This document shows, piece by piece, positions 8,451-45,693 of a stretch of DNA of 64,000 nucleotides (positions are counted from its first letter, which is position 1; each line of letters begins with the position of its first letter). The stretch is from IMG/VR virus record IMGVR_UViG_3300037312_000757. One strand, given 5' to 3'. Source of the stretch: a virus (Duplodnaviria; Heunggongvirae; Uroviricota; Caudoviricetes). Made by a program: the position numbers and the translations under genes. Under the pieces are notes generated by a model that worked only from the letters and a program-made list of their open reading frames with translations, did not search any database and was not told the origin of the DNA.

Positions 8451-8465
8451 AAATTCTCCGTGTGA

Positions 8466-16123: not shown

Positions 16124-16371
16124 GTTACAATTTTGTTCTCGATCATATAACTGAAGACATATTCTTCAGTTTTTCTGAATTCCCTGATAACGGGGTTCAG
16201 TACTTGAAATGGTGTTTCCCTTCATTTCATGCATGGTTGACCGAGAACGAAATTGACTACAAAGTTCACTTCGAGTACAGAGCGCCATTCTCAACTGGCG
16301 GTGAAATTCGCGCACGATTAGAAGTCGAAAGCGAACAAGACGCCGTTCTTATCCGTTTGAAATGGAGCTGA
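16120..16371 (+). CDS. FKLxW-family small protein
   Basis: WLTEN...SEQDAVLIRLKWS; ATGA overlap. Confidence 0.75.
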   Translation: MSYNFVLDHITEDIFFSFSEFPDNGVQYLKWCFPSFHAWLTENEIDYKVHFEYRAPFSTGGEIRARLEVESEQDAVLIRLKWS

Positions 16372-16372
16372 C

Positions 16373-16702
16373 ATGATTCATCGTTTTCCGCAATATGGCC
16401 ACGCATTGTTGATCACTGGCGAAAACAAGCGTGAGCAAGGTAACTTCACTGAACGAGCACTTGCAGAGCTGGTATTGCATGAACGAGAATCTCATGTCAT
16501 CCGTCTACGTGTTTGGAAGTGCCGTTACATTACAGTCAAGGAAACTTTGCTGTATCAGCACTTTCAAACCGAATATCCGAGCATCTACGCTGTTTACGAG
16601 AAGCAGTATGACGGATATAACTTCAACGCATTCACAGCCGAATACGTCATCATTCCTGACGTCACTGAGGCGATCCACTTCAAGCTGAAATACTTGTGCT
16701 AG
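16373..16702 (+). CDS. FKLxW-family small protein
   Basis: EAIHFKLKY. Confidence 0.72.
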   Translation: MIHRFPQYGHALLITGENKREQGNFTERALAELVLHERESHVIRLRVWKCRYITVKETLLYQHFQTEYPSIYAVYEKQYDGYNFNAFTAEYVIIPDVTEAIHFKLKYLC

Positions 16703-16956
16703 ATTTTGATACACTCACCGGTCTCTATGTGGCCGAAGTCCCATATCCAAAGGATTACGATCATTTCGTTGATATCTGTGAGTGGCTCAAAGACAATGCA
16801 CCAGATGATTACTCATTGCCAGTTAATGTGGTAACTCGTGCTACTTTCATAGACGAAGTGTGTTACACTCATGCCAAACCTGTAGTAGAACCAAAATGGC
16901 ATGTCTTCTTCGCTGACATTCATATTGCCGTTTGGTTCAAACTGACCTGGCAATAA
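16696..16956 (+). CDS. FKLxW-family small protein
   Basis: EWLKDN...IAVWFKLTW. Confidence 0.75.
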   Translation: MLDFDTLTGLYVAEVPYPKDYDHFVDICEWLKDNAPDDYSLPVNVVTRATFIDEVCYTHAKPVVEPKWHVFFADIHIAVWFKLTWQ

Positions 16957-16958
16957 AA

Positions 16959-17627
16959 ATGACAACAAAGCTCCGGATCATACCAGCACCAATCACAATC
17001 TCAAATACGTTCATCTCAGCAGGTGATCAAACCATTCACATCCCGGTATCTCCGATTGGCCAATCAGCGGCCAACAACATCTCGCTCACCATCAACGGAG
17101 CAATGTATCCGTTGACTGATTACGGTAGCCATAATTACCACAACCCGTCATACTGTTTCTTCTATGACGGCCTTCAGGAATACCGAGCAGTGTACGGCGA
17201 TCTCTATATTGTCGATGGTGTCAACCTCGAAACAATCAAGATCTTCAATTTCTGGGGTAACGATGACTTCCTCAAGTGGTTCGAAGACAATTGTACCAAC
17301 GAAGTGTTCATTCAGAACTATGGCAGTCAACTATGGCGCTTCATCTTCCGAACGGTAGAAGAACATGATGCATTCAAAGCAAAGATTAGCAAGCAGCGTA
17401 ATCACAGTTTCAAGATTGAAGTCCCTGCTGATGTAAAGGTAGACTACTTTGTTAAGGAAGTAAGCGACTGGTGCATGGCTAACTTGCAAGATAAGTTCTT
17501 TGTTCGAGGCCATGATTGGTTTACCCACAACAACGCGCACATTACTGTCGAAGTCAAGGATGAAGCAGAAGCAGTTATGACCAAGATTGTGTGGGTTGAT
17601 GGAAATAAAGAAAAGGCGTTGCCATGA
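16959..17627 (+). CDS. FKLxW-family protein, tandem two-domain form
   Basis: KWFEDNC..EHDAFK and DWCMAN..EAVMTKIVW. Confidence 0.7.
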   Translation: MTTKLRIIPAPITISNTFISAGDQTIHIPVSPIGQSAANNISLTINGAMYPLTDYGSHNYHNPSYCFFYDGLQEYRAVYGDLYIVDGVNLETIKIFNFWGNDDFLKWFEDNCTNEVFIQNYGSQLWRFIFRTVEEHDAFKAKISKQRNHSFKIEVPADVKVDYFVKEVSDWCMANLQDKFFVRGHDWFTHNNAHITVEVKDEAEAVMTKIVWVDGNKEKALP

Positions 17628-17890
17628 ATTACAAAGACTGGGAAACCCCACGAAACACCGCCAAATCCGTTGCAAGTGTTCTAGTCGTACCGCAGTTCAG
17701 CTCAATGCCTGTGAATCGTACGGTGATACTCGGTAACAGCGACGACTTGAAATCTGCTCTGCAGTGGGCCAAGGATATGTATTACAAGATTCAAACGCAG
17801 AATCCCGTTGTCTATCAAGGCAAGGTTCGTGAAGCTGTGATTTTCAAGAAACAAAAAGACGCCGCGCTGTTCAAGATCGTGTGGGGTTGA
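17624..17890 (+). CDS. FKLxW-family small protein
   Basis: DAALFKIVWG. Confidence 0.75.
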   Translation: MNYKDWETPRNTAKSVASVLVVPQFSSMPVNRTVILGNSDDLKSALQWAKDMYYKIQTQNPVVYQGKVREAVIFKKQKDAALFKIVWG

Positions 17891-17891
17891 T

Positions 17892-18317
17892 GTGGATCTC
17901 TGGGTGGCAACTGACAGAGTGCTGGTGCGGAACGAAATTCTTGACGATGCCAAGGAATTCAGCCGACATATAGGACTGATCCCAGTGGCTTCGTATACCG
18001 TACGAAGCCTAGAATTCAAACATAGATGCATCACTTTCGAGAAGAACGGCGATGCTAATCTTTTCAAGAGTCAATGGATACCAATTATGACAGAAGTTGA
18101 ACAAAAGTTGCTGGAGAAGATGGAAAGCTTCCCGCACAAATTTTCCATTCCTTGGGTTGGAAAACGCTTGTACGAAATCAAGAGTCTGCTAGAATCGGAG
18201 CTAGGTGAACAAAACAAGGATTGGCAGTGGATAGCTAGTCCTGGCGAAGATTTCGCGATCACAATTGGTGCAAAGGACGCCACACAACTTGTAAAGGTAA
18301 GGCTTCTACTTTCATGA
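17892..18317 (+). CDS. FKLxW-family protein, two-domain form
   Basis: DANLFKSQW and QLVKVRL. Confidence 0.68.
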   Translation: MDLWVATDRVLVRNEILDDAKEFSRHIGLIPVASYTVRSLEFKHRCITFEKNGDANLFKSQWIPIMTEVEQKLLEKMESFPHKFSIPWVGKRLYEIKSLLESELGEQNKDWQWIASPGEDFAITIGAKDATQLVKVRLLLS

Positions 18318-18580
18318 AAACAGTCAAGGTTGATAGCTCGGCTCTGTACCTTCGTTTGAACGACGAAGAGAATATGGCCACGCTCGAGCCGGTTATCTCC
18401 GAGCCGTTGCAGCGTTGGTTGCAAGACAATGAAGTTGACGTGAAGGACATCACGCCACTGATTGGCACTGATGACGGACACATTGCGTTCTTCATCGAGT
18501 TTCACAACGATACAGATTCAGTAGCGTTCAAGCTTGGTTGGGACGGTGAATGCGAAACCGTTCCGAACAGAATAAAATGA
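18314..18580 (+). CDS. FKLxW-family small protein
   Basis: WLQDN...DSVAFKLGW. Confidence 0.75.
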   Translation: MKTVKVDSSALYLRLNDEENMATLEPVISEPLQRWLQDNEVDVKDITPLIGTDDGHIAFFIEFHNDTDSVAFKLGWDGECETVPNRIK

Positions 18581-18590
18581 AGACGCTATA

Positions 18591-18917
18591 ATGCGGAGAC
18601 TTTGTTCTGCAGTTGGTGCCATGATTCGCAAGTCATCGAGCAAAGTGAGCAGTTTCTTTGCTCGTTTGTATTTCCGGCACTCGGTTTCGATCAAGTACGA
18701 CAACGAGAGTTACACTGAAGTCTACGACTGGGTGCAGGAAAAAGTTGGTAAGCGGTCTGTCTGGGTGAACTACAACACTGAGACTTGCATTGATGCGAAT
18801 GGCGTAATCGTGCAAATGATTACTGACAATCGTCTGGAGTTCCGCTTCAGAAAGGTCACGGACGCGATTATGTTCAAGCTGACGTTCGTAGACATCCTGT
18901 TTACAAAAACACCGTAG
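18591..18917 (+). CDS. FKLxW-family small protein
   Basis: DWVQEKVG...DAIMFKLTF. Confidence 0.75.
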   Translation: MRRLCSAVGAMIRKSSSKVSSFFARLYFRHSVSIKYDNESYTEVYDWVQEKVGKRSVWVNYNTETCIDANGVIVQMITDNRLEFRFRKVTDAIMFKLTFVDILFTKTP

Positions 18918-19620: not shown

Positions 19621-20310
19621 TTAGTCGTTCGACGGAGCACGCACACCGATGATCGACAGCAGGTTCACGAACAGGTTCATGAAGTCGAGATACAGGGACA
19701 GCGCACCATTGACTTGCTGGAAGTTGAGTTCGTCAACGTTGTCAGCGTAGTGCAGACCATCGCGGATCTTCTGCGCATCGTAGGCCGTGATCGCCAGGAA
19801 CAGCAGCACCGTGATGATCGAAACGATCAGCGTGAGCGTGGAGCTTTGCACCAAGAAAATGTTCACCAGGCTGACGATGATGATCGCGATCAGACCAACA
19901 AACAAGTATTGACTGAGGCCCGTGATATCACGTTTCGTGAAGTAGCCGTATGCCGACATCGTCAGGAACAGTACAGCCGCCGAGAAGAACGCGAGGAAGA
20001 TCGATGCCGTTGTGTATGCCGCGAATACCCCTGCGAGCAACACGCCCCAGACCGTTGCAAACGCGCCGAACAGTCCGAGCAAGTAGCCCTTCGATGCGCC
20101 CTTTCGCGCCGTCGAGATTGCCGCTGTCAGGCACAGGCTGATGACGAACAGAACGATGAATGCAACGACGTTCGTTGCCATAGCCAGCAGCGGCTTGCTG
20201 CCTTGAACCAGGAACGCGATCAGGCCAGTGTACAACAGTGCGCCGAAGACGTAGTTGTACACCTTGACCATCGCCGAGTTCAGCGACGAAGCCGAGAGAC
20301 TGATACCCAT
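19621..20310 (-). CDS. yccA: Bax inhibitor-1/YccA family membrane protein
   Basis: Seven TM helices, YGY.TKRD, AYDAQKI, ALSLYLDF.NLF; AAGGAG SD. Confidence 0.9.
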   Translation of the reverse strand: MGISLSASSLNSAMVKVYNYVFGALLYTGLIAFLVQGSKPLLAMATNVVAFIVLFVISLCLTAAISTARKGASKGYLLGLFGAFATVWGVLLAGVFAAYTTASIFLAFFSAAVLFLTMSAYGYFTKRDITGLSQYLFVGLIAIIIVSLVNIFLVQSSTLTLIVSIITVLLFLAITAYDAQKIRDGLHYADNVDELNFQQVNGALSLYLDFMNLFVNLLSIIGVRAPSND

Positions 20311-20351
20311 TAGTTTGTTTCTCCTTAAATGGTTTAAAGTAACAACACTGC

Positions 20352-20382
20352 CAATTCTGTGTTCACTTGAACTGGCAGTCAA
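20352..20382 (-). promoter_or_regulatory. Sigma70-type promoter TTGACT-17-CAGAAT with a GTTCAAGTGAAC palindrome in the spacer
   Basis: Near-identical spacer at 47901-47912; variants at 7807 and 41315. Confidence 0.6.
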
Positions 20383-20393
20383 GCACTTTTTAC

Positions 20394-21143
20394 TTAGGAA
20401 CGTTCGCAAATAGCAGAATTTGCACCATGTTCGAAAACTTCAACTGATTTCAGTCGTACCGTCGGGTTCAGTTGCTGGTCACGCGTGTCATCAAGCAGCT
20501 TAGTCACGTAGTCAAACACAAGCTCAGCAAAACGTTCGCAACCCACGCCTGGCACGACGCGCAAGTCAATGGAATGCGCTGTATCAGGATTTTCGGCCAT
20601 AGCCTGCCAGAATGAAAGCATCGGGTCGTCTTCTGCGATTACCATTGTGTGGTCGAACATGTATTCGAGCCATTGCTTGACTGGCTTCAGCCCACCAAAA
20701 TCCATGACCCAGTTACGTTCATCAAGTGTGTCACATTCAAAGATAAACTTCACACCGATTGAATAGCCATGCACCTTGGAGCAGTGTGAGTGAGTCGAAC
20801 GCCATTGACGGAAACAGCAGCTCAGGCCCCTATCGTTACCGAACGTCTTGGTTGACAGGAACTTCTTGGATGGCTTTTCGATGAAATAGCCTTCATTAAT
20901 GAGCGAGCCTACATGTTGTTTGGCTTCATCATCATTCATACCGCTTACGTCTACGTAGAATACACGCCGGTCGTCTTTGTTGACAGCTTTTGCCATTTGA
21001 TCTCGCATTTCGGCGACGTCTTTGTTCAAGGCTGCCTTAATTTCTTCAGCCGCATCAATACCCAGCGATGCTGCCAATTTCACTGATTCGTCGTCAATGC
21101 CAACAGTGAAAGAACCATGCTCAGTGTTATGTTTGATATCCAA
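20394..21143 (-). CDS. queD: 6-carboxy-5,6,7,8-tetrahydropterin synthase QueD with ~90-aa N-terminal extension
   Basis: SHC..VHGYS, NWVMDFGGLK, FDHT, GCERFAE, VEVFEH. Confidence 0.88.
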   Translation of the reverse strand: MDIKHNTEHGSFTVGIDDESVKLAASLGIDAAEEIKAALNKDVAEMRDQMAKAVNKDDRRVFYVDVSGMNDDEAKQHVGSLINEGYFIEKPSKKFLSTKTFGNDRGLSCCFRQWRSTHSHCSKVHGYSIGVKFIFECDTLDERNWVMDFGGLKPVKQWLEYMFDHTMVIAEDDPMLSFWQAMAENPDTAHSIDLRVVPGVGCERFAELVFDYVTKLLDDTRDQQLNPTVRLKSVEVFEHGANSAICERS

Positions 21144-26162: not shown

Positions 26163-26474
26163 TTATTTTTCTTCCACTGCTGTAATTTGTTCGTAAAACA
26201 TCAACATGAACATAAAGGCTTCGCTCTCCGTTTCGAAGCCAATACCGTCACTTTTCAACTCTGGGTGATACGTGATTCTCGACGTCACCACATTTGACGT
26301 TGCTCGCCATTCCCTAACGGAATCATACAAACACCTTTTCTTTGGCAAGTAATTGACGAAATAATCCCGGTACCCTTCCACACGTCCCGGCTGGTGTCGT
26401 TCATCCCATGTCACCCACCAACTGAAACGACTATTCTTCGTCCCAGATGGCATTTGGTATTGCCTCAGCTTCAC
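26163..26474 (-). CDS. FKLxW-family small protein
   Basis: GFETESEAFMFMLMF. Confidence 0.7.
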   Translation of the reverse strand: MKLRQYQMPSGTKNSRFSWWVTWDERHQPGRVEGYRDYFVNYLPKKRCLYDSVREWRATSNVVTSRITYHPELKSDGIGFETESEAFMFMLMFYEQITAVEEK

Positions 26475-26731
26475 TGGAACACCTCGTGATGACAGAAAGT
26501 CATGTAGAAGTGAATTGCTTCTATCTCTTCTCGGAAGCCAAAACCAGATAGCCCACCAACTCTAGACTTCAGCAGACAATTATAGGAATGAACTCTGATG
26601 AACTCCTGCATTTCGTTAATGGCTTTAGAGACACGTTTGTCCTTAGCGCCAAGTTCCGAAATGAAGTTGTTTGTTTCCCAAGTGACCCACCACTTGAAAA
26701 ACATTTCGTGTTCATCCTTTGTTATTTTCAT
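26471..26731 (-). CDS. FKLxW-family small protein
   Basis: GFREEIEAIHFYMTF; shares WWVTW with the previous gene. Confidence 0.7.
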   Translation of the reverse strand: MKITKDEHEMFFKWWVTWETNNFISELGAKDKRVSKAINEMQEFIRVHSYNCLLKSRVGGLSGFGFREEIEAIHFYMTFCHHEVFQ

Positions 26732-27033
26732 TTTGCTAACGGTATATCGAGATGAGTCAATCTGAACAGAACCGCATCTGTTTCATTGTCAAACCGCAAT
26801 ACAGCATGGTGTCCAGTTTCTTTGCTGAAATCAACAGTCCAACCCATTATACCAACATGTTCAGTAATCCAAGCTTTGATTTCAGCTTCAGCTCGAGCTT
26901 GATTATATTTTGCCCAATTGATCGAATGACGGCTAATGGCCAGTGTAGTTATTTCACCCCGAAGATGAGCAGTAGTGGGCCATTTTAATGGCTTGACATT
27001 AGAAATGTCGAATGCGTAAGTCACAGCATCCAC
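26728..27033 (-). CDS. FKLxW-family small protein
   Basis: WITEHVG...DAVLFRLT. Confidence 0.75.
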   Translation of the reverse strand: MDAVTYAFDISNVKPLKWPTTAHLRGEITTLAISRHSINWAKYNQARAEAEIKAWITEHVGIMGWTVDFSKETGHHAVLRFDNETDAVLFRLTHLDIPLAK

Positions 27034-27293
27034 TTCAATTTAAAATACGTCGCCAATTTATCATCTTTAATGAGCAAATATGCACACACTCGACTAAGAT
27101 GAGACCATTCAAAATGAACAAGCCAGGTATCATCGCCTTCTGATGTAGCAAGTTCTTCGGTCAACCACTTTCTGACCTTGCCTGCCCGCAAGATATTCTC
27201 AGCTGATTTTAGAGATTTGTATTGATTCCATTCAACATCAGGAACAATGTGTGAAATCTCAAACAACCAACCATCTTGTTCTTGTTCTACCAT
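27021..27293 (-). CDS. FKLxW-family small protein
   Basis: WLTEE...LATYFKLKW. Confidence 0.75.
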   Translation of the reverse strand: MVEQEQDGWLFEISHIVPDVEWNQYKSLKSAENILRAGKVRKWLTEELATSEGDDTWLVHFEWSHLSRVCAYLLIKDDKLATYFKLKWML

Positions 27294-27559
27294 GTCAACA
27301 TGAATTCGAACGCATCATTATAACTGGTAAATCCAATCCAAGTGCCATCCGCATAAACCCGAACTTCACCTTCCATGTTCGCCTGGACCCACAACCAGAA
27401 ATCGTGCTTGAAACTTTCGTGCTCCCATTCCAAGTCAGCATTCACGAAAAATTGACATTTGCATGGCCTGCCGAAGTCGACGAAACGTTCGGGAGCCAGC
27501 AACACATCTTTGGAAATCTCAGAATTTTTCGCAATAAAAGCTTGGCGTTCGTAAATCAT
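27287..27559 (-). CDS. FKLxW-family small protein
   Basis: GGAG SD at MIYERQ; WVQAN...DAFEFMLTW. Confidence 0.72.
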   Translation of the reverse strand: MIYERQAFIAKNSEISKDVLLAPERFVDFGRPCKCQFFVNADLEWEHESFKHDFWLWVQANMEGEVRVYADGTWIGFTSYNDAFEFMLTW

Positions 27560-27650
27560 GTTTTCTCCAGAGATCATCGTGAAGCAGAAATGGCACGAAT
27601 GCCAAATTGCTTCGTTAATTATAACAAATTTGTAAAATGGCAACTAGACG

Positions 27651-27923
27651 TCAGAACGAGTCTTTCACCAGGGCAAATTCAACTGCAATGGTGTCATCCT
27701 CGATTTCTATTTCGTAGATGAAGCACCAGTTTCTGAATTTACCAACATTCGTCTTAATCGTCATATTCCAACCGTCACCTTCTACGGTGTCGATATTTGG
27801 ACTAAACGAATAATCTGCTCTATTGGTTGTCCTTGCGACTAACCAATCAATTACTTTGGGCTTGAATGAAACGATATTGTCATCATCCATGCCCTTTGTG
27901 ATACAAAAAACATTCACAACCAA
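27651..27923 (-). CDS. FKLxW-family small protein
   Basis: IEDDTIAVEFAL. Confidence 0.72.
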   Translation of the reverse strand: MVVNVFCITKGMDDDNIVSFKPKVIDWLVARTTNRADYSFSPNIDTVEGDGWNMTIKTNVGKFRNWCFIYEIEIEDDTIAVEFALVKDSF

Positions 27924-28210
27924 TCCCGTATGATAAGTGCGAGCGCTACAGCTAACACTTCATCATCGATCTCGAATTCGAGATGCATCATGGTGTTTTC
28001 AAAGTCGAATCGGTAATACATGTTCCAGCCTTTACCTGGTAGCTTGTCCAAGTAAAATTCATCCTCAATACCCTTAGACTCCATTTCACCAACACATGGC
28101 CCAATGTTTTCGGTGAGCCAGCTGATTGACTTGTTGATGAATCGGTGGTGTCCTACAGGAACATCATTTACTTTGAACGTTGCCATTGGTGACTGTCCGC
28201 TTAATTTCAT
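27914..28210 (-). CDS. FKLxW-family small protein
   Basis: WLTENIG, GKGW, IDDEVLAVALAL. Confidence 0.75.
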   Translation of the reverse strand: MKLSGQSPMATFKVNDVPVGHHRFINKSISWLTENIGPCVGEMESKGIEDEFYLDKLPGKGWNMYYRFDFENTMMHLEFEIDDEVLAVALALIIRDWL

Positions 28211-28442
28211 CTAGCCAACGTAACTTGAAGGCTAATGCTTCTGTTTCATTCCACAGTTCGACTTTGATGTAGCGATCTTTCCAGTCGCCACTATACACTA
28301 AACCACTTTGCCAAGCGTACTTTTTAATTTTTGTTTTGGGATCAACTTCAATCACCGACGGGCCGATGTTCGCGTGGAGCCACCGCTCAACTTCGACGGG
28401 CAGGTCACGTACGGTGAAGGGGATGAAGAATGTTGTTGTCAT
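28164..28442 (-). CDS. FKLxW-family small protein
   Basis: WLHANIG...EALAFKLRW. Confidence 0.75.
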   Translation of the reverse strand: MTTTFFIPFTVRDLPVEVERWLHANIGPSVIEVDPKTKIKKYAWQSGLVYSGDWKDRYIKVELWNETEALAFKLRWLDEIKRTVTNGNVQSK

Positions 28443-28495
28443 GTGCAGTTGCCAAAGTGGGTTGCTATTCTACTAGCGAGAATTGGCAACCGCAA

Positions 28496-28753
28496 TTAAG
28501 GCATTGACAACTTAAACGCTACTGCTGATGTGGCGTCTTTAAAGAGGAAGATGTTGAAGAAGCTCAGATATTCTTCTGGATCTGACGTTTGCATTGCTAA
28601 GGATTCAAAGTCCACAGTATTGAAGACATCAACCAGAACTTTATGCTCAAACCCATGCTGCCGAGCGATCCTAACCATATCAGAAATCTTGAAGGGTGCA
28701 GGCAATAGTCTACGTCGTTCTGGATCAGCATCAATCCATTGTCTGAGCTTCAT
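28496..28753 (-). CDS. FKLxW-family small protein
   Basis: FKDATSAVAFKL. Confidence 0.72.
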   Translation of the reverse strand: MKLRQWIDADPERRRLLPAPFKISDMVRIARQHGFEHKVLVDVFNTVDFESLAMQTSDPEEYLSFFNIFLFKDATSAVAFKLSMP

Positions 28754-28754
28754 A

Positions 28755-29039
28755 TCAGTACCAACGCTTCTTCACGTGTTCCTTGAGTTTGTCAAGGTTA
28801 CACATCAGCTTGAACTTGACTGCTTGAACACTGTCGTCGAAGTAAACCATGTCTTGGCAGATGACGAAAGATTCATAGCCGAGGTTTTCTATGCACCAAG
28901 ATACCATACGAGCCACTTTCACACCTTCTGGCATCTTCATGCGTTCGTATTGCTCGCATTTGTCAAGCTCTGCTCGTACCTGGCGTACGGGCATTTTTTG
29001 CTCTTTAAACAGCTGGTTGAAATGTTCGCGCACGTTCAT
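28755..29039 (-). CDS. FKLxW-family small protein
   Basis: WCIENLG...FDDSVQAVKFKL. Confidence 0.75.
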   Translation of the reverse strand: MNVREHFNQLFKEQKMPVRQVRAELDKCEQYERMKMPEGVKVARMVSWCIENLGYESFVICQDMVYFDDSVQAVKFKLMCNLDKLKEHVKKRWY

Positions 29040-29082
29040 CTTATTATTCTTATTGGCGTTTTGAAGCGGATATTTTAGCGCT

Positions 29083-29322
29083 TTATCCGTCGGCAGCAAA
29101 GAGCTCGTTGCCAATTTCCACGACGGTGCAAGCAAAACCCTTGTCATGCTGGAAGTCGCGGAACACTACATCGTTCTGTTGATATTCACGAACTTGCACC
29201 CAATGCCGAGCCACCGTGAAAATGCACAGTTCACAGTAATGCTCGACGATGAACGCCTTGCAATCTTGCTTTGTCATGTCGAAGTAGTTGCTGTCTATTG
29301 CAAGGCAGTTTAACACCAACAT
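29083..29322 (-). CDS. Hypothetical protein within the array (no FKLxW motif)
   Basis: 79 aa ORF filling a gap in the array. Confidence 0.5.
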   Translation of the reverse strand: MLVLNCLAIDSNYFDMTKQDCKAFIVEHYCELCIFTVARHWVQVREYQQNDVVFRDFQHDKGFACTVVEIGNELFAADG

Positions 29323-29329
29323 GCAATCA

Positions 29330-29689
29330 TTATCCGTTTTTTCTGCGTTCTTCTAGATACTCAGGGAAGAACAGCTTCCACTGAACCGCAAGGGTTGTGT
29401 CTGTGAAAAGGATGTATGAACCACCTTCATGATCAGACGACGTTTCGATCACATAGTCGTAGGTGGAGACTTTTTGAGAATTCATCCAGTTGTATAGATA
29501 CTCAAGATCATCGTAGCTGTATTCTGGTACAGCGTCAGGAAGCACGTTTCCCGGCGCTCTGAAACGTGCCATGACATAACCTGCTTGCTCGGCAGCTTTT
29601 TGAAATTCAGGGCTGTAGGCGAGGCCAAATTGATCAATGGCGACCTGCCACCATCTGAGCGCATCTATTTTATTCATAACCATATGCAA
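29330..29689 (-). CDS. FKLxW-family small protein
   Basis: FTDTTLAVQWKLF. Confidence 0.72.
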   Translation of the reverse strand: MHMVMNKIDALRWWQVAIDQFGLAYSPEFQKAAEQAGYVMARFRAPGNVLPDAVPEYSYDDLEYLYNWMNSQKVSTYDYVIETSSDHEGGSYILFTDTTLAVQWKLFFPEYLEERRKNG

Positions 29690-29957
29690 GCTTAAACGTC
29701 ATTGCGTCATTTGAGTGGGTGAAGAAGATCCGCTTGTCGCCCTTGGCATTAGCGTACTCATCACTCTCCCAGTAATCATCTTCACCAACGTTGTCTTCGA
29801 GCCAGCACAGCATGTCGAAGTGCTTTTCGGGTGGCCAACCATCGAAGTTGATCATGACGAACGGATACTTCATCGACATCAACTCGCTATCAATTTCGTC
29901 CGAATTGATCATCAAGCCAACGGCGGCAAGGACTCCCACGATTGCTCCCAATGACAA
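29670..29957 (-). CDS. FKLxW-family protein with N-terminal hydrophobic helix
   Basis: WLEDNVG...DAMTFKLAY. Confidence 0.75.
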   Translation of the reverse strand: MSLGAIVGVLAAVGLMINSDEIDSELMSMKYPFVMINFDGWPPEKHFDMLCWLEDNVGEDDYWESDEYANAKGDKRIFFTHSNDAMTFKLAYGYE

Positions 29958-30011
29958 AAGCCATATGATAGCACCATATGGCTTTTCGATGATAGCTATT
30001 TCCTATTGCAA

Positions 30012-30257
30012 TCAGGAGAACATTAGCTTGAAGATCAATGCATCATTTTCATCTTCGAAGGCATAGAGCAGGCTAACATTCTCCCAGATCGAAATCGGTT
30101 CAATGAACACTAGCGTGAACTTGGTTCCAAATACCCAAGCGTATTGGTGCGTGTCAGTCTTGATGCTGTATTCTTTATACTGATCGATTAGCAGCATTGC
30201 AGCCAGCTCATCGCAGTAATCGACGAATTTGTTAGCCGTCATTTCTACAAAATACAT
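30012..30257 (-). CDS. FKLxW-family small protein
   Basis: FEDENDALIFKLMF. Confidence 0.75.
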   Translation of the reverse strand: MYFVEMTANKFVDYCDELAAMLLIDQYKEYSIKTDTHQYAWVFGTKFTLVFIEPISIWENVSLLYAFEDENDALIFKLMFS

Positions 30258-30258
30258 G

Positions 30259-30525
30259 TCAACTCCACATCAATCGTGCCATCACAACATAACTGTCATC
30301 ATTGATTAATAGAATGACCTTCTCTGAACCCCATTCACGTATGACTTTCCAGCCCTTTCCACGCACGACAATCTTGTCACTCTTGATTTGCACGATCTTT
30401 TGCGGGCCGATGTTTTTACGAAGCCAAACGGCAATCTCTGGTGCCTGTTTGGTGTCTTGATCGACCCATTGCCCCATCCAAAGGTAGATGAACGGCAAGT
30501 GCTTGGTGATGTCGATCGTGTGCAT
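30259..30525 (-). CDS. FKLxW-family small protein
   Basis: IDIT, WLRKNIG, GKGW, VMARLMW. Confidence 0.75.
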   Translation of the reverse strand: MHTIDITKHLPFIYLWMGQWVDQDTKQAPEIAVWLRKNIGPQKIVQIKSDKIVVRGKGWKVIREWGSEKVILLINDDSYVVMARLMWS

Positions 30526-30526
30526 A

Positions 30527-30853
30527 TTAGAAACTAAGTTTGAATAAAACTGCCAGTTCGTCGTCTTCGATGTGAACTCGTTTCGAGAAGAAAAAGAATT
30601 TGTCGTTGGTGGCCTGCTCTTTGAAATTGCGATTTGCGAAGTCTATTCGAACCTTTCTCGAACAACGATCTTTATAGCATTCGTATTGCATGTATTCATA
30701 CTTCCAACCTTTGCCATTTACCGTATAGGTATGGCGAGTATGATTACCATCAATTACCGGACCGACGTTTTCTGACAACCAAAGAATCATTTCATCAAAT
30801 GATTGTTCGAATAAGTAATCGTGAACGTCGATCTCGTTTTTCATCAAAGCCAC
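30527..30853 (-). CDS. FKLxW-family small protein
   Basis: WLSENVG, GKGW, IEDDELAVLFKL. Confidence 0.78.
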   Translation of the reverse strand: MALMKNEIDVHDYLFEQSFDEMILWLSENVGPVIDGNHTRHTYTVNGKGWKYEYMQYECYKDRCSRKVRIDFANRNFKEQATNDKFFFFSKRVHIEDDELAVLFKLSF

Positions 30854-31104
30854 CTAAGTTTAAACATGAGGACATCTCGTTCATCTTGTAACTCTAAAGC
30901 CCAGGAACGTAGACGAGCCTCTGGATGTGCCAAACGCAGCGTGTATGATACTATAAGAAGTTGCCATCCGCACCCAATACTGGCTGGCCACGGAATAGTG
31001 TAGCGGACAACTGGCCCAACTGATTCAGATAACCAGCTGACCAGATCGTGAGTTTGAGAGAGTGATGCGGAAGTGACGAGATCCGATATGTCTATAATTC
31101 CCAT
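30844..31104 (-). CDS. FKLxW-family small protein
   Basis: WLSESVG, GCGW, DVLMFKLRW. Confidence 0.78.
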   Translation of the reverse strand: MGIIDISDLVTSASLSQTHDLVSWLSESVGPVVRYTIPWPASIGCGWQLLIVSYTLRLAHPEARLRSWALELQDERDVLMFKLRWL

Positions 31105-31355
31105 GATAGCTTGAACTGAATCATATGAACGTCATGATCAAATTCAAGGTAGAACTGGGTTTGTATGGAGCCATCGCCAATTTTCTGATACAGCTTGACA
31201 ATACGCCAGCCGTCACCAACAGCGGGAACATCGTTGTCGAACCACCAGGCATTTGCGTAATGAATGGTGCCAACGTTTTCGTCTAGCCATTCAAGCAATG
31301 CTTTTGGGAAGAAAATTAGTTCGTTTTTAGTGATTGAAATTGCGCTCACAGACAA
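31092..31355 (-). CDS. FKLxW-family small protein
   Basis: WLDENVG, GDGW, IQFKLSW. Confidence 0.78.
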   Translation of the reverse strand: MSVSAISITKNELIFFPKALLEWLDENVGTIHYANAWWFDNDVPAVGDGWRIVKLYQKIGDGSIQTQFYLEFDHDVHMIQFKLSWEL

Positions 31356-31558
31356 GCCAGCTTGAACATGATCTCAAGTGCTGGCTCATCAATGTAAACT
31401 TTCAATTCGTCGATAGTGACAATCATCAACCAACCGTCACCCTGATACATGCCGTGCTTGCAGCGAAACAATTTACCGACATTGGTAACTAACCATTCGG
31501 TAAATTTTTGCAGTTCGACACTAGAGGTAGATCGGTTTGTTAAATGAATCATGACCAA
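31346..31558 (-). CDS. FKLxW-family small protein
   Basis: WLVTNVG, GDGW, IMFKL. Confidence 0.78.
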   Translation of the reverse strand: MVMIHLTNRSTSSVELQKFTEWLVTNVGKLFRCKHGMYQGDGWLMIVTIDELKVYIDEPALEIMFKLACL

Positions 31559-31797
31559 ATCAGCTTAAACATAACTGCCAGCGAATCGTCTTCGATTTCC
31601 ACGAAGTACGATGTGCGGATGTCGCCAGCAGCATTGCGTACATCATAACGTTTGACCGTCCACCCATCACCATAAGCAGTCTGGATGTGAATAGTCTTTA
31701 GTCGTCCGATGTTATCAATAAGCCAATGCTTGATTGGTTGCCAATGTTCTGTCTTAGCGTCACCTACCATGTATTTAGATATATCGATAGGTGTCAT
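31549..31797 (-). CDS. FKLxW-family small protein
   Basis: WLIDNIG, GDGW, LAVMFKLIW. Confidence 0.78.
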   Translation of the reverse strand: MTPIDISKYMVGDAKTEHWQPIKHWLIDNIGRLKTIHIQTAYGDGWTVKRYDVRNAAGDIRTSYFVEIEDDSLAVMFKLIWS

Positions 31798-32045
31798 GCG
31801 AAACTCAATTTGAATGCTACGGCAAGCGTGTCGTCATCGAACTCAACACACCATTGAATTCCCTTCTTGCGTGAAGGGTCTTGATTGAGTCGAGGAAACA
31901 TGCGCCATCCTTCGCCGATACGATCAGCGATATCCAAGGACGGACCCACGTGTTCCTTTAGCCATGAACGCATTTCACGTCTCTTACTGGCGTGTTCCGA
32001 AATGAAATATCGTTCGAGAATGAAATCAATAACGACTAATGCCAT
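31794..32045 (-). CDS. FKLxW-family small protein
   Basis: WLKEHVG, GEGW, DDDTLAVAFKL. Confidence 0.78.
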   Translation of the reverse strand: MALVVIDFILERYFISEHASKRREMRSWLKEHVGPSLDIADRIGEGWRMFPRLNQDPSRKKGIQWCVEFDDDTLAVAFKLSFA

Positions 32046-32396
32046 TTATAGCCACCGCAGCTTAAACATCACTGCCAGTTTAGCATCTAAAATATGAAGG
32101 TAATACCGAGATTCTGATATCGTTTTTGAGTATGGCAAAGCTGCCCAAGGTTGACCAGGCTTGCCACCCCATTCATGCTCAGGTATCGGGTTTTGCATAT
32201 AGACGGTTTCGTATGTAATCGCCCAGTGTTCGCCACGATTTCTGATTTGTTGAGCATGCCCAGTCTCGATCAACTCAAAACTAGGAAGTCCAAGAATTTC
32301 TGGTCCTATGTTTTCGTGCAACCAAGCGAATACTTCGTTATCTGAGTCCTTGACTAGCAGATATTTCCACATCAAGTCCGTGATGTTTATAACCAT
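32046..32396 (-). CDS. FKLxW-family small protein
   Basis: WLHENIG, GEHW, LAVMFKLRW. Confidence 0.78.
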   Translation of the reverse strand: MVINITDLMWKYLLVKDSDNEVFAWLHENIGPEILGLPSFELIETGHAQQIRNRGEHWAITYETVYMQNPIPEHEWGGKPGQPWAALPYSKTISESRYYLHILDAKLAVMFKLRWL

Positions 32397-32623
32397 ATAA
32401 GCGAAAATCTCCGTTCGCTTTGTTCTTCAACGCATTCAAGGAAGAATCGTTCTTCACGTTCGTGAATGACCCACCCACGACCACACCAACGACCTTCGAC
32501 TGGTGCTTCAGGTTTGCGTTTTCCACCGATTTGTTCGTAAAGCCAATTCACGCACATTGGAATTGACTGTGAGTTGCGACCATTAAGGTGCTTGGTGATA
32601 ATTCTTGTAATTTCTATAGCCAT
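32387..32623 (-). CDS. FKLxW-family small protein
   Basis: WLYEQIG, GRGW, FSLIW. Confidence 0.75.
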   Translation of the reverse strand: MAIEITRIITKHLNGRNSQSIPMCVNWLYEQIGGKRKPEAPVEGRWCGRGWVIHEREERFFLECVEEQSERRFSLIWL

Positions 32624-32853
32624 TTCAATTTGAATGCCACTGCTAGTGTGTCATCATCAATATTTACATACCATGTATGACCACCTTGGGTGAATTCAAC
32701 CTCGATAGTCCAACCCACACCAGAGTACGAAAACAGCATCTGGCCTGAGTCGTGTTGAGGACCAATATCCATCTTCAATGCAGTCAACAAAGCTTGCAGA
32801 TCGCCTGCTGGATTTTCTGGTCCGATGTGAGACGTTACGTCAATCAGGGCCAT
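32614..32853 (-). CDS. FKLxW-family small protein
   Basis: GVGW, DDDTLAVAFKLKW. Confidence 0.78.
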   Translation of the reverse strand: MALIDVTSHIGPENPAGDLQALLTALKMDIGPQHDSGQMLFSYSGVGWTIEVEFTQGGHTWYVNIDDDTLAVAFKLKWL

Positions 32854-33158
32854 GTCAGCTTAAACATCACGGCCAATTCAGGGTCATCAATAGTGACGCA
32901 CCACTGATAACTCGTTTCCATAGGCTTGTCTGACTCATTTGAGATCGCCATTTTGTTCAATGACCATCCTTCACCACAACGACCAATACCAACACCGTCA
33001 TAAATTGGATCGTAACCCTGCATCGCTCTGCTAACATTCGTTTCCAACCACTCAACCATCTCGTAATAGTTGTCGAACAGAATGTCGCTGAATGCAGGGT
33101 ATAAGTCAGGAGTATTTTTCTTGCTCAGATATTTCTGAACATTAATATAGTTCTTCAT
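32844..33158 (-). CDS. FKLxW-family small protein
   Basis: WLETNV, GEGW, LAVMFKLTW. Confidence 0.78.
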   Translation of the reverse strand: MKNYINVQKYLSKKNTPDLYPAFSDILFDNYYEMVEWLETNVSRAMQGYDPIYDGVGIGRCGEGWSLNKMAISNESDKPMETSYQWCVTIDDPELAVMFKLTWP

Positions 33159-33439
33159 CCGCAGTGATCGCCATACTTGAGTTTATACATAACAGCATGG
33201 CTATCGTCATCGATCGTCAATGCGATACCGCTTCGATTTTCATCGTTAGACCGATTGATGTCAATACGCCAGCCATAACCATAATATGGCAAATAGCGGT
33301 TATTGTCAGATATTGTCCAACCAACATTATCGTCGAGCCAATCAATTACTTCGACGTAGATTGATGGCTGCGGAGCTTTGTTTATGATTGAGACGCTGTG
33401 GTAGTGCTCATACCACATTCTGGTGATGTTGAAGTCCAC
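33155..33439 (-). CDS. FKLxW-family small protein
   Basis: WLDDNVG, GYGW, HAVMYKLKY. Confidence 0.78.
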   Translation of the reverse strand: MDFNITRMWYEHYHSVSIINKAPQPSIYVEVIDWLDDNVGWTISDNNRYLPYYGYGWRIDINRSNDENRSGIALTIDDDSHAVMYKLKYGDHCG

Positions 33440-33440
33440 G

Positions 33441-33728
33441 TCATTGTTCTTTTATTGGGACGTCCGGCACAATCATTCTAAAGTGAACGGCATCTGCATC
33501 ATTCTCTAGATGCAAATAGCGTTTCATTGTTACATATCCATGTGAATCGGGTGGTGACATCACCCATTCAATCTCCCATCCATCCCCTTTTGCTGGAGAT
33601 GCCGGCCGTCCGCTTGGCAAGCGGCGTGTTGCTTGCGCTCCGGTTGTCGGATATGCTGGGCTTATGTGTGCTTGACACCATTCGCTGACAACTCTTGCGC
33701 TGATATTTGAGACGTCGAAAGTGACCAT
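33441..33728 (-). CDS. FKLxW-family small protein
   Basis: WCQAHI, GDGW, DAVHFRM. Confidence 0.75.
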   Translation of the reverse strand: MVTFDVSNISARVVSEWCQAHISPAYPTTGAQATRRLPSGRPASPAKGDGWEIEWVMSPPDSHGYVTMKRYLHLENDADAVHFRMIVPDVPIKEQ

Positions 33729-33961
33729 ACTATTTTGAATTGTAGTTCGTCAAGTTCATTTTCGAACTCGAAGCAGAAGCGCAGACCACCACGGCCACGA
33801 ACGCGCTTCAGGCTGGCTAGCCAACCGTCACCGATATGAATTCCTCCGGCCATTTGCTTGATTGCGCCGATGTTCGACGCACACCAGTCAATCATCTGGT
33901 CGAAACGCAGCGGATCGGTCCCGTTTGCGTTGTCCATCACAAAGTCAGTCACATCGATCAT
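33662..33961 (-). CDS. FKLxW-family small protein
   Basis: GGAGG SD; WCASNIG, GDGW, LQFKIVW. Confidence 0.75.
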   Translation of the reverse strand: MIDVTDFVMDNANGTDPLRFDQMIDWCASNIGAIKQMAGGIHIGDGWLASLKRVRGRGGLRFCFEFENELDELQFKIVWSLSTSQISAQELSANGVKHT

Positions 33962-34016
33962 AATACCTCCGAAGATCATTCATTATAGCACAAATGAAGG
34001 ATCATTTGTAGGAGAA

Positions 34017-34421
34017 TTACAGCCAGCGCAGCTTGAACATTGCGATGCCTTCCTTGTCGCGGAACTTGAGTGTCAAGGTATCGCGCATCAACGAATTATT
34101 GTTGAAATACGTGAGGTCGAGCCACTTTGCATGCCAGCGATATTTACCCGATGCGCCGCCTTCACCAAGTGTCTCACGGCACCATTCGACCTTCTCTGCA
34201 AAGTTTTCGACAATCACGTGCCATTCATTTCCAACTTGCCTGATTTTCATCAGTTGTTCTTCCCGAGCTTGTAGATCCAATTGGTGACGATATTGCTGAA
34301 GCCACGCCGAGGTCATCAAAGTAGACTTACCAGTATTTCTCGCTCCCCAAATGACAGCCTGTCCAGCAGGAATACCATTTTGCCAATTTGGTGGAATCCA
34401 TGCACCTGGGTTGTGACTCAT
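34017..34421 (-). CDS. FKLxW-family protein with an N-terminal Walker-A-like segment
   Basis: GARNTGKST; WCRETLG...IAMFKLRW. Confidence 0.72.
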   Translation of the reverse strand: MSHNPGAWIPPNWQNGIPAGQAVIWGARNTGKSTLMTSAWLQQYRHQLDLQAREEQLMKIRQVGNEWHVIVENFAEKVEWCRETLGEGGASGKYRWHAKWLDLTYFNNNSLMRDTLTLKFRDKEGIAMFKLRWL

Positions 34422-34672
34422 AAAATGCTCATCTTGAATTGTACGGCTTCGTTGTCATCTGGTACCGACACGAAAAGTTGATACGTTCTGGATGATGACT
34501 TCACCACATGCAATACTCGGGCGGAGCTAATCGTTTGGAGGAATTCATCAAATTCTTCACGCTCACTGCTATCAACTTCTAGCAGAAAGTTGTAGCCGAT
34601 CCTGAAACCATGCCGCATCCAGAATTCACCCTGGTCGACATGTTTACTCCATTGTAATTTAATACCTTTCAT
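34418..34672 (-). CDS. FKLxW-family small protein (first gene of the array)
   Basis: DDNEAVQFKM. Confidence 0.7.
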   Translation of the reverse strand: MKGIKLQWSKHVDQGEFWMRHGFRIGYNFLLEVDSSEREEFDEFLQTISSARVLHVVKSSSRTYQLFVSVPDDNEAVQFKMSIL

Positions 34673-34742
34673 GATTCTTATGGTGAAATGGCAAGGGGTT
34701 TACCTTGCCATTTTACTACGACTATGATCTCACACAACGATA

Positions 34743-36467: not shown

Positions 36468-36788
36468 TTAGGGTCGATTTAGATAAGTCACGATCGCCAC
36501 AAGAACGTCTTCAGCTTTCGGATCTTTGAGTGTGCTGAGTATGCGACAGGAAGCTGTTAAAAGAGCCTTGGCGCTGTTTACGTGCTCTTTTAGATGCGGG
36601 TAGTCAGTTGCCCCTGCCAGGTGCAGGAAGGCGCTCTGATCAAGTTTGGCAGGCATTCCTCGAAGTAGGTTAGCATGCAAGTTAGTTGGATCTTCGAGTT
36701 TACGCCATTCATATAGCTCTTTGTCTCTTGCTACGAGAAGCATGCACAGTTCTTCTTTTGACAACTCGGGGTAATCAATATCAGACAT
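36468..36788 (-). CDS. Hypothetical protein
   Basis: LHANLLRG.PAKL; coupled to the upstream gene. Confidence 0.65.
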   Translation of the reverse strand: MSDIDYPELSKEELCMLLVARDKELYEWRKLEDPTNLHANLLRGMPAKLDQSAFLHLAGATDYPHLKEHVNSAKALLTASCRILSTLKDPKAEDVLVAIVTYLNRP

Positions 36789-37269
36789 GAACGGCCTCTA
36801 CGATAGGAGTCACTTCTGTATTCGTTACGTTGATTGTACACGTAAACGTCTCTGCGAGCTCATCTTCTTCAATAGGCAACCATGGTCTGCGATGACACAG
36901 CGTGAGTGTACTGGTGCCCGGTTGACCGGCCCAGAAACGCCACAGAACATGACCTCCGCCACCGACAAGCAATTCGCCCTTGTCAGTGTGCGTCCTGATT
37001 GGAGTGTGTTCGGGATCTTTCATCTGCATCAGAATTGATGCATTGTTTTCAGCTAGTTCCCACAAAAAGCCCGTGCTAGGGTTGTCTGGGAGAGTGAGAA
37101 GAATACCGGAGTCGACCGGTACGGTGATCGTCATGTTGTTCTGCTCTGCACCCAGCATGAAGTGCGTGCAGTCTTTGTGCAAACAGCGTCTTACTTTCTT
37201 CTTCTTCATACAGCCTAGAAAGTAACAAAGAATGGTAAATGCAATCACATAAAGTGGTAGGAATGACAT
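36781..37269 (-). CDS. Chagasin-family (I42) cysteine protease inhibitor, membrane-anchored
   Basis: NPSTGFLW, VGGGG, RRPW loops; N-terminal TM. Confidence 0.8.
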   Translation of the reverse strand: MSFLPLYVIAFTILCYFLGCMKKKKVRRCLHKDCTHFMLGAEQNNMTITVPVDSGILLTLPDNPSTGFLWELAENNASILMQMKDPEHTPIRTHTDKGELLVGGGGHVLWRFWAGQPGTSTLTLCHRRPWLPIEEDELAETFTCTINVTNTEVTPIVEAVHV

Positions 37270-37631: not shown

Positions 37632-37907
37632 TTACGCGAACGTAAGGTGGAACTCGATGGCGGCTGCGTGGGACTTGAAGCAGAATTCGACGATCGCATC
37701 AAAACTTGGATCATCAAAACAGGTCAAGCGAACAAAAGCTTCGTTTTTCCCCATGAAAATGATGCCTCGCTGGTGATATACGTCGTTGTCATATCGTTCT
37801 TCTAGCCAGCGGATCTCATCGTCAAACATCATGAAGGAATTGAACGGTGAAGTCGTTTGGACCACGTACCATTCACCGTCCCGATCGAAGTGAAAAGCGT
37901 TACTCAT
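37632..37907 (-). CDS. FKLxW-family small protein (dispersed copy)
   Basis: WLEE...FKSHAAAIEFHLTF. Confidence 0.68.
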   Translation of the reverse strand: MSNAFHFDRDGEWYVVQTTSPFNSFMMFDDEIRWLEERYDNDVYHQRGIIFMGKNEAFVRLTCFDDPSFDAIVEFCFKSHAAAIEFHLTFA

Positions 37908-45342: not shown

Positions 45343-45693
45343 TTAAATTCCGTTCCAAGTAAGTTTAAAGAGTACCGCATCGACATGTGATTCGAAAATC
45401 ACACCAACTGTATAAGAGCAACCAGATTCCCACCCTACGTGGTCGTATTTGCTCGTACAGTTGTCAATACACCATTGTTTCATATCAGCCATTGATCCAT
45501 ATGTGAAATCATAACACTTCACCAGAAACCAATTAGCTGGATATTTCTTACGCACTTCTGCGATGGCGTATGAGTCTTCCCATTCATCTTCACCAACGAA
45601 GTCGTCGAAATCAAGTTCGTCGTTCTTCGTTTCCACTTCTACTTCTTTCTTTCCCAACAAATTTTTCAATGCTTGAAACATTGGTGTCTCCAT
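45343..45693 (-). CDS. FKLxW-family small protein (dispersed copy)
   Basis: WCIDNC...FESHVDAVLFKLTW. Confidence 0.78.
   Translation of the reverse strand: METPMFQALKNLLGKKEVEVETKNDELDFDDFVGEDEWEDSYAIAEVRKKYPANWFLVKCYDFTYGSMADMKQWCIDNCTSKYDHVGWESGCSYTVGVIFESHVDAVLFKLTWNGI

Follow-up and report, generated by a model that had tools for sequence, protein, structure and literature searches.

Arrays of paralogous genes are already known in jumbo phages. In Bacillus phage G a zinc ribbon is found in about 35 copies, an expansion that was called 'unprecedented' (Iyer et al. 2021, PMC7824862), and phages G and 121Q have been reported to carry more than 30 similar genes in tandem (Hua et al. 2017, PMC5646251). 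The 30-gene array described here is of that kind, but is built from a new protein family, to which we give the name FKLxW domain; it lies in a 64,000-nucleotide stretch of DNA (the window) corresponding to the minus strand of positions 168518–232517 of the IMG/VR virus record IMGVR_UViG_3300037312_000757, a genome of 523,836 bp with direct terminal repeats, which is judged complete. In all these cases dozens of small paralogues are arranged head to tail in the genome of a giant phage and are read as the outcome of tandem duplication. The protein family and its fold are, however, different, and so are the copy number (46–78 against about 35), the divergence of the copies ('very similar' in phages G and 121Q, very diverged in FKLxW with a mean identity of 19%) and the distribution, FKLxW being present also in low copy across many other jumbo phages.

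Among large eukaryotic DNA viruses, multigene families are found that combine a constant module with a variable binding part, such as the ankyrin/PRANC proteins of poxviruses. With these the FKLxW proteins have in common the tens of diverged paralogues, the fixed frame and the variable surfaces; the poxvirus proteins, however, carry a separate, F-box-like docking module at the C-terminus, whereas the constant motif of FKLxW appears to lie within the core of a single domain.

Members of this previously undescribed family are recognized by a first helix ending in W-L-x-x-N-h-G, a G-x-G-W turn, a last strand of the form h-x-h-x-D-D and a C-terminal helix A-h-x-F-[KA]-L-x-W, in proteins of 65–155 amino acids (aa). 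A hidden Markov model (HMM) iterated over all six-frame open reading frames (ORFs) of the genome converges on 78 ORFs, and gives no matches in reversed or shuffled ORF sets. Of two further models, the one built from the 48 genome members outside the array (outside-array HMM) recovers 23 of the 30 array genes, and the one built from 50 metagenome proteins of other phages only (external HMM) recovers 46 ORFs over the whole genome, of which 20 belong to the array. Combined, they provide 26 of the 30 array genes with support that is independent of the genes themselves, and these 26 are taken as members; three related genes at the 3′ end (26163, 26471 and 27287) are variants, and the motif-less gene 29083–29322 is still a candidate. 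The genome thus holds 46–78 copies; the 78 amount to 25.8 kb, or 4.9% of its length, in six clusters, two of which (at 363–376 and 459–474 kb) encode proteins with longer middles between the same conserved ends. An earlier note on this DNA, made by reading the letters alone, had counted about 44 copies in the window, close to the 38 HMM-supported members and 4–5 motif-only candidates found here. The copies that it placed outside the array are borne out at 14.4–18.9, 45.3 and 50.4 kb; at 37.6 kb only the motif is seen, and at 45.6 kb no copy was found.

The note had recognized no characterized family, and neither did the searches. No Pfam-A, PHROG or NCBIfam family at an expectation value (E) of 0.01 or below is common to more than one of 25 own and 50 external members, ten of the longer paralogues have no match to a Pfam, PHROG or NCBIfam family, and a profile search of PDB sequences returned rows at chance level only (E above 0.3). 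A SUKH/immunity-type family was considered and rejected for want of a sequence signal, as were the Clp adaptors ClpS (PF02617) and SspB as the identity of the family, with no Pfam match.

The array itself consists, as had been claimed, of 30 consecutive minus-strand ORFs of 70–134 aa (table 1). The statement that 29 of them end in the motif holds in a loose sense, since within the last 25 residues 22 tails are canonical ([FWY][KR][LMI]), seven are degenerate (FAL, LAL, ARL, FSL, FML, FYM) and one, that of 29083–29322, shows none; the latter is a real gene, as its orthologue in a sister phage is 65% identical. The hydrophobic N-terminus noticed in one member is also real (29670–29957).

The sister phage, known from a 523,572-bp contig and a 290-kb IMG/VR fragment that are 99.07% identical to each other, carries its array between the same flanking genes. 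Positional orthologues are found in the same order for 26 of the 30 array genes, at 25–82% identity (median about 43%), and no counterpart exists for three genes here (32614, 30259 and 27021) or for at least two of those in the sister phage; the flanking genes for IMPDH and a nucleotidase are 86–87% identical between the two phages. The non-synonymous divergence (dN) from the sister phage is about 0.48 for the array and about 0.10 for IMPDH and the nucleotidase, synonymous divergence being saturated or undefined. Between the two sister strains, 40 synonymous and 28 non-synonymous codon differences are found in the array, and 24 and 10, respectively, in the flanks, giving ratios of non-synonymous to synonymous polymorphism (pN/pS) of about 0.22 and 0.13. 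The array genes are, therefore, under purifying selection, yet fast-evolving: members are individually retained and constrained, while surface residues are replaced 4–5 times faster than in housekeeping genes. Within the array, paralogues are 19% identical on average and 37% at most, so that the description of the sequences as almost unalignable outside the motifs was a fair one, and neighbouring genes exceed non-neighbours by a small margin (21%, permutation p about 0.01). Because of this divergence and of the faintness of the neighbour effect, the array is read as an old expansion and not as a recent gene accordion.

Two observations on single genes belong here. In one of the two 99%-identical sister strains, a 1-nucleotide indel splits the orthologue of 29330–29689 into ORFs of 49 and 48 aa (L002:11951-12213 versus L001:11951-12214); thus, single members can be lost. 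The Walker-A-like segment that had been noted in 34017–34421, an N-terminal stretch reading G-A-R-N-T-G-K-S-T, is indeed present, but the sister-phage orthologue, which is 47% identical, lacks it, and it is probably meaningless. The first 50 or so residues of the two proteins are unrelated, so one of the lineages has exchanged this N-terminus for another. A functional P-loop NTPase was rejected for this gene since the motif is not conserved; the only match is a sub-threshold one to DUF815/AAA_14 over about 50 aa.

Beyond this pair of phages, a profile search of 1.84 billion cluster representatives returned 538 metagenome proteins at E ≤ 0.001. Among the 150 matches listed, all are stand-alone proteins of 64–154 aa; 11 are the phage's own and, among the others, only six are close orthologues. 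A word-index protein search, which found few relatives and is weak evidence, showed no longer, fused forms. With one family profile (A1), the 290-kb sister fragment gave 32 matches, the cultured Sinorhizobium phage Phosso (PV764938, host S. meliloti) 12 (at least 12 copies), Agrobacterium phage Atu_ph07 a single weak one, and four other jumbo phages of 285–525 kb between none and four; set beside the 78 copies that the iterated HMM finds here, the expansion is a lineage-specific, tandem one. A tblastn search of GenBank phages with three members gave nothing, the only matches in GenBank phages being those of a subfamily adjacent to ClpP, in Phosso, and a search for related loci with one query (P0037) found nothing in IMG/VR. 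On a 301-kb ENA contig from an unrelated jumbo phage, seven members are packed into 3 kb (L096:2506-5470) of a 10-kb stretch, with a DEAD-box helicase gene and a DnaB gene on either side, and another phage contig has five members in 6 kb; the family has, therefore, formed small arrays on more than one occasion. Homologues by predicted fold are also present in BFVD, namely A0A6J5KSM5, A0A6J7WNC3 and A0A6J5TAG8 of uncultured Caudovirales phages (83 aa, 23% identity, template-modelling (TM) score 0.83); being unnamed and unstudied, they add to the distribution of the family, not to its function.

An alignment of 25 members (mean column identity 16%) brings out three conserved blocks, W-L-x-x-N-h-G, G-x-G-W and D-x-x-x-A-V-x-F-K-L-x-W, and a semi-conserved N-terminus, M-x-x-I-D-I-T; the first block is the central W-L helix of the earlier note, to which the G-x-G-W turn is an addition. 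AlphaFold2, given this alignment, models the product of 31549–31797 with high confidence (predicted local distance difference test, pLDDT, 94.8; predicted TM score 0.81) as a two-layer domain of beta-alpha-beta4-alpha order, i.e. a short strand, a helix (residues 14–29), four strands and a second helix (71–81). An uncharacterized BFVD entry from an uncultured phage, 83 aa long and predicted independently, matches the model at a TM score of 0.83, and Foldseek finds nothing in the PDB at E ≤ 0.001. The expectation of one shared fold stands for the main group, and for the three 3′-terminal genes a different strand order is predicted: the variant 26163–26474 is modelled as beta-beta-alpha-beta-beta-alpha (pLDDT 92.2), with no match in BFVD and a best Z of 5.6 in VIA-align, under the stated noise mark of that method (about Z 8), as is every Z obtained in this work. 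These three genes share with the main group only the helix and the C-terminal strand-helix unit.

The place of the conserved residues in such a domain bears on what the constant part is for. The near-fixed columns are W, L, N, G, G, W and, in the tail, A, F, L and W, i.e. turn glycines and large hydrophobic residues, and the last strand alternates as W-x-V-x-I-x-D, as expected if one face of the strand packs under the helices. The lysine is the only polar residue of the tail motif and is not fixed in the wider family: of the 139 external members among the matches listed, 68 carry F-K-L, whereas in 44 the sequence is F-A-L followed by K-W. Between orthologues, the motif columns are 75–100% identical as compared with 20–45% elsewhere, which supports the earlier proposal of a constant part with variable surfaces in an uncharacterized family. 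The further proposal, that the constant part is a docking helix, is not supported, the invariant A, F, L and W being hydrophobic, the lysine being replaced in those 44 proteins and the helix being packed within the monomer by AlphaFold. With the fixed residues hydrophobic or glycine, the lysine not fixed and the monomer model confident, the C-terminal motif is more likely to be a buried core element than a docking helix, which is the outcome that the note itself had named as speaking against its idea.

The genes of the array are closely joined. At 20 of the 29 junctions the genes overlap or are at most 1 nucleotide apart, the largest gaps being of 37, 53 and 54 nucleotides, and the upstream stop codon is TGA at 17 of 29. 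At 10 or more junctions the ATG, GTG or TTG start of the next gene is made of the last base of the preceding codon and the TG of the conserved Trp codon (e.g. ...ACA TGG CCC TGA), so the motif and translational coupling are physically linked. Sigma-70-like sites number 26 in the array against 20.8 ± 4.6 expected from shuffling, and neither a T4-type late TATAAATA nor the strict sigma-70-like consensus (TTGAC[AGT]-N16-18-TAxxxT) is found there. About 12 nucleotides upstream of the ATG of the first array gene lies a perfect 10-bp hairpin (AATGGCAAGG ... CCTTGCCATT; 34684–34712, minus strand), with no T-run behind it and no clear Shine–Dalgarno sequence, which could serve for processing or attenuation where the array starts.

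How these features may come together is best accounted for, in our view, by a panel of specific binders on a constant scaffold with one target per paralogue, a reading that we prefer tentatively and with a confidence just short of even. Copies are stand-alone, mostly acidic cytoplasmic proteins of about 80–130 residues (median net charge −5, median isoelectric point (pI) 5.3, 12% above pI 8). Each would provide a fixed two-layer alpha/beta scaffold made of a short strand, helix 1, a four-stranded antiparallel sheet, an acidic helix cap and the C-terminal helix, in which the conserved residues would hold both helices against one face of the sheet, leaving its other face, the loops of differing length and the outer faces of the helices free to vary. 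Through the variable face each paralogue would recognize a different host (or phage) macromolecule, in the service of host takeover or counter-defence. The array genes would be co-expressed as a translationally coupled operon running on into the nucleotide-metabolism genes, and at least one branch of the family would work beside an AAA+/protease module of the phage (MoxR-like ATPase, DUF2201 VWA-zincin and ClpP). We infer the binding activity, the nature of the targets and the timing of expression from the features described above, and several of these weigh against such a panel. Stable one-to-one orthology and a pN/pS well below 1 are unlike a rapid arms race; the burial of the motif is deduced from residue type, periodicity and model confidence; the strand order predicted for the three 3′-terminal genes differs from that of the main group, and one array gene lacks the motif; promoter-like sites are not above expectation, and 'early' expression is a guess.

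The alternative that survives best, although we consider it unlikely, is that the paralogues are adaptors, each handing a different host protein to the phage ClpXP or to a MoxR-like AAA+ protein by means of its constant part, much as the viral F-box/PRANC or BTB families supply a degradation machine with host proteins; slightly less probable still is the form in which a repertoire of substrate adaptors or selectors would serve ClpXP and/or the MoxR-like ATPase with DUF2201, dozens of them delivering host proteins for destruction. The phage does encode ClpX and a true ClpP, and phage-encoded Clp adaptors are known (SPO1 Gp53 for ClpCP, PMC6873191; phage ClpS, PMC7824862), which are small phage proteins tied to Clp proteolysis; among FKLxW members, some are translationally coupled to a phage ClpP. 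A 110-aa member (genome 52826–53158) ends 3 nucleotides before the bona fide ClpP gene, to which it is translationally coupled, within a block (genome 48921–55191; L012:921-7191) that comprises genes for a MoxR-like AAA ATPase, a DUF2201 zincin-VWA protein, a NADAR-domain protein, the member itself, ClpP and a T4-type RNA ligase 1, possibly a proteostasis/repair module of the phage. Orthologues of this member (31–40% identical, with a G-x-x-A-W extension) occupy the same place in two IMG/VR contigs, one of which has a second member directly after ClpP; in another lineage a single member lies 0–3 nucleotides after ClpP and is followed by a GNAT acetyltransferase gene, and in a further one a member sits between the AAA ATPase and DUF2201, so that the association survives rearrangement across phages. 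In Phosso, however, the orthologue (XYS97406) stays with the AAA and DUF2201 genes (preceded by AAA and a 422-aa protein and followed by a GNAT gene and the RNA ligase), and ClpP is found elsewhere, without a member. A member is present within 4 kb at only three of 80 phage ClpP loci, four other external members are in plain runs of small genes, and with 78 copies one chance adjacency is not unlikely. Most copies, the 30 array genes among them, are not near ClpP or ClpX-specific partners, and the conserved positions are of the hydrophobic core type, with no evident constant polar docking surface. A complex prediction for two copies of the phage ClpP with the ClpP-adjacent member scored 0.00, which is evidence neither way. 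For the shared Clp hub suggested in the earlier note, the subfamily upstream of ClpP and the members after ClpP elsewhere provide a lead that is real, though indirect; the link to AAA+/protease machinery is put forward for that subfamily and is not shown for the array.

The predicted fold brings in a second alternative, which we regard as improbable, namely that the proteins are specific regulators of phage or host genes, or mimics, using a TBP-like or KA1-like fold to bind DNA, RNA or membranes. In a wide VIA-align search of solved structures the main model reached at best Z 6.7 (1v8c, root mean square deviation 3.6, 69 residues aligned), and weaker rows include the substrate-binding N-domain of RNase HIII (Z 5.8), the KA1 domains of Chk1 and METTL16 (Z about 5) and the C-domain of phosphoglucomutase (PGM), all of which we take to be of TBP-like beta-alpha-beta4-alpha topology. 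Domains of this type (TBP, the RNase HIII N-domain, the ZipA C-domain) bind their ligands on the exposed face of the sheet. The order of elements is the same in 3vn5 (RNase HIII N-domain), 5wi2 (Chk1 KA1), 6m1u (METTL16 VCR), 5bmn (PGM C-domain) and 1v8c (C-domain, MoaD-related), in all of which an antiparallel sheet carries two helices on the same side. The resemblance is, however, one of architecture only, at Z 4.6–6.7 and 6–10% identity, under the chance mark and with no shared motif seen, and Foldseek is, as said, silent on the PDB. A transcription-factor role has been proposed for the zinc ribbon of phage G (Iyer et al., PMC7824862); the FKLxW members, in contrast, are mostly acidic and have no conserved basic patch among their fixed columns.

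Somewhat less probable again is that the proteins are packaged in the capsid and injected, like the internal proteins of T4, so as to disarm host defences on entry. Members are small, numerous and fast-evolving, with a semi-conserved N-terminus, and the phage group is distantly T4-like; that N-terminal segment is, however, modelled as strand 1 rather than as a cleavable targeting peptide, and the array stands among genes of nucleotide metabolism and replication, not among head genes. Least probable of all is largely dispensable filler left by an ancient tandem duplication through which the genome grew to fill a larger capsid, for, although tandem duplication has been proposed as a route to jumbo genome size (Hua et al., PMC5646251) and both the frameshifted orthologue and the genes of each phage that lack a counterpart in the other would suit it, the array is under purifying selection (pN/pS about 0.22), 26 of the 30 genes keep their order and reading frame although only about 43% identical, the columns that determine the fold are preserved and the family is spread across many unrelated jumbo-phage contigs.

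The surroundings of the array help to place the phage. Encoded around it are IF3, ClpX, the two subunits of topoisomerase II, IMPDH/GMP reductase, an NT5C-like nucleotidase, ribonucleotide reductase, a chagasin-type peptidase inhibitor and RlaP. The large topoisomerase subunit has 62.7% identity with its counterpart in Phosso (469 kb) and 56.1% with the one in Atu_ph07 (490 kb). IF3 lies directly downstream of ClpX (together 7923–9713, minus strand), as in Atu_ph07 and Sinorhizobium phage AP-J-162, a pair that marks the phage lineage, and the IF3-ClpX-topoisomerase arrangement is that annotated in Atu_ph07 and described for AP-J-162 (PMC11242549). On the basis of these identities and of this gene order, the phage, which comes from soil, is related to the giant T4-like phages of Rhizobiales and is itself uncultured. 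The genes for the two subunits of topoisomerase II, directly adjacent in Atu_ph07, are here split by one HMM-supported and one motif-only member (14013–14734, plus strand). Two genes are unusual phage cargo: a homologue of chagasin-family (I42) cysteine-peptidase inhibitors 2 kb upstream of the array (36781–37269, minus strand) and a membrane protein of the Bax-inhibitor-1 family downstream of it (19621–20409, minus strand).

Table 1. The array, its genes and other family members and candidates in the window, with the phage ClpX gene; percentages are identities to the sister-phage orthologue.
Feature	Position	Strand	Length (aa)	Remarks
Whole array	26163–34672	−	70–134	30 tightly packed small ORFs; collinear with sister-phage locus L002
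Member	34418–34672	−	84	Tail FKM, no G-x-G-W; outside-array HMM E 7.6e-6; orthologue 46%
Member	34017–34421	−	134	Walker-A-like N-terminal stretch not kept in orthologue
Member	33662–33979	−	105	Tail FKI and 17-aa extension overlapping next gene by 67 nucleotides; external HMM E 7e-10
Member	33441–33728	−	95	Tail FRM; external HMM E 7.6e-9
Member	33155–33439	−	94	Tail YKL; external HMM E 2.4e-18; orthologue 67%
Member	32844–33158	−	104	External HMM E 1.2e-16
Member	32614–32853	−	79	External HMM E 1.4e-17; no positional orthologue in sister phage
Member	32387–32623	−	78	Degenerate tail FSL; best conserved orthologue (82%)
Member	32046–32396	−	116	Long insert in sheet region; external HMM E 2.6e-13
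Member	31794–32045	−	83	External HMM E 2.5e-19
Member	31549–31797	−	82	Modelled beta-alpha-beta4-alpha, pLDDT 94.8
Member	31346–31558	−	70	Shortest; external HMM E 7e-9
Member	31092–31355	−	87	External HMM E 3.1e-14
Member	30844–31104	−	86	External HMM E 5.5e-14
Member	30527–30853	−	108	External HMM E 6.4e-15
Member	30259–30525	−	88	Degenerate tail ARL; no positional orthologue in sister phage
Member	30012–30257	−	81	Outside-array HMM E 1.5e-5
Member	29670–29957	−	95	Hydrophobic N-terminus; external HMM E 4.4e-5
Member	29330–29689	−	119	Tail WKL; orthologue split by 1-nucleotide indel in one sister strain
Motif-less array gene, candidate member	29083–29322	−	79	Matched only by HMM containing it; orthologue 65%
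Member	28755–29147	−	130	N-terminal extension; outside-array HMM E 6.4e-5
Member	28496–28753	−	85	No W-L helix motif; outside-array HMM E 1.5e-4
Member	28164–28442	−	92	C-terminal extension; external HMM E 1.1e-7
Member	27914–28210	−	98	Degenerate tail LAL; external HMM E 3.5e-11
Member	27651–27923	−	90	Tail FAL; external HMM E 1.9e-10
Variant member	27287–27643	−	118	Tail FML; self-including HMM only; orthologue 73%
Member	27021–27293	−	90	External HMM E 2.2e-7; no orthologue found in sister phage
Member	26728–27033	−	101	Tail FRL; external HMM E 1.2e-7
Variant member	26471–26731	−	86	W-W-V-T-W N-terminal strand, tail FYM; self-including HMM only
Variant member	26163–26474	−	103	Modelled beta-beta-alpha-beta-beta-alpha, pLDDT 92.2
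Phage-encoded ClpX	8466–9713	−		
Motif-only candidate	14013–14372	+		Tail A-V-K-Y-K-L; below HMM threshold
Member between the two topoisomerase II subunit genes	14369–14734	+		HMM E 5e-4
Motif-only candidate	16120–16371	+		Tail A-V-L-I-R-L-K-W; below HMM threshold
Member	16373–16702	+	109	HMM E 1.4e-3
Member	16696–16956	+	86	HMM E 8e-11
Protein with family domain at C-terminus	16932–17627	+	231	HMM E 3e-10, residues 167–226; no Pfam match
Motif-only candidate	17624–17890	+		Tail A-A-L-F-K-I-V-W
Member	18314–18580	+	88	HMM E 4e-9
Member	18591–18917	+	108	HMM E 9e-13
Motif-only candidate	37632–37907	−		Tail A-A-I-E-F-H-L-T-F
Member	45343–45693	−	116	HMM E 4e-9
Member	50374–50658	−	94	External HMM E 7.8e-6

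Giant phages carry hundreds of genes without a known use, and the expansion of gene families is one way in which they grow. A single genome holds up to 78 copies of FKLxW, roughly double the expansion of phage G, and the family is made distinctive by its size, age and spread, by a confident, novel-looking fold and by the neighbourhood of a protease module. Defining the family would annotate hundreds of orphan proteins together, and the design of fixed core and variable face, along with gene-for-gene retention between sister phages, suggests many separate targets. The recurring neighbourhood of ClpP and the MoxR-like ATPase offers a concrete, testable hypothesis, and the existence of a cultured relative in Phosso makes the question experimentally approachable; if the paralogues were indeed adaptors, they would be the first counterpart in a bacterial virus of the F-box/PRANC-type families of large eukaryotic viruses.

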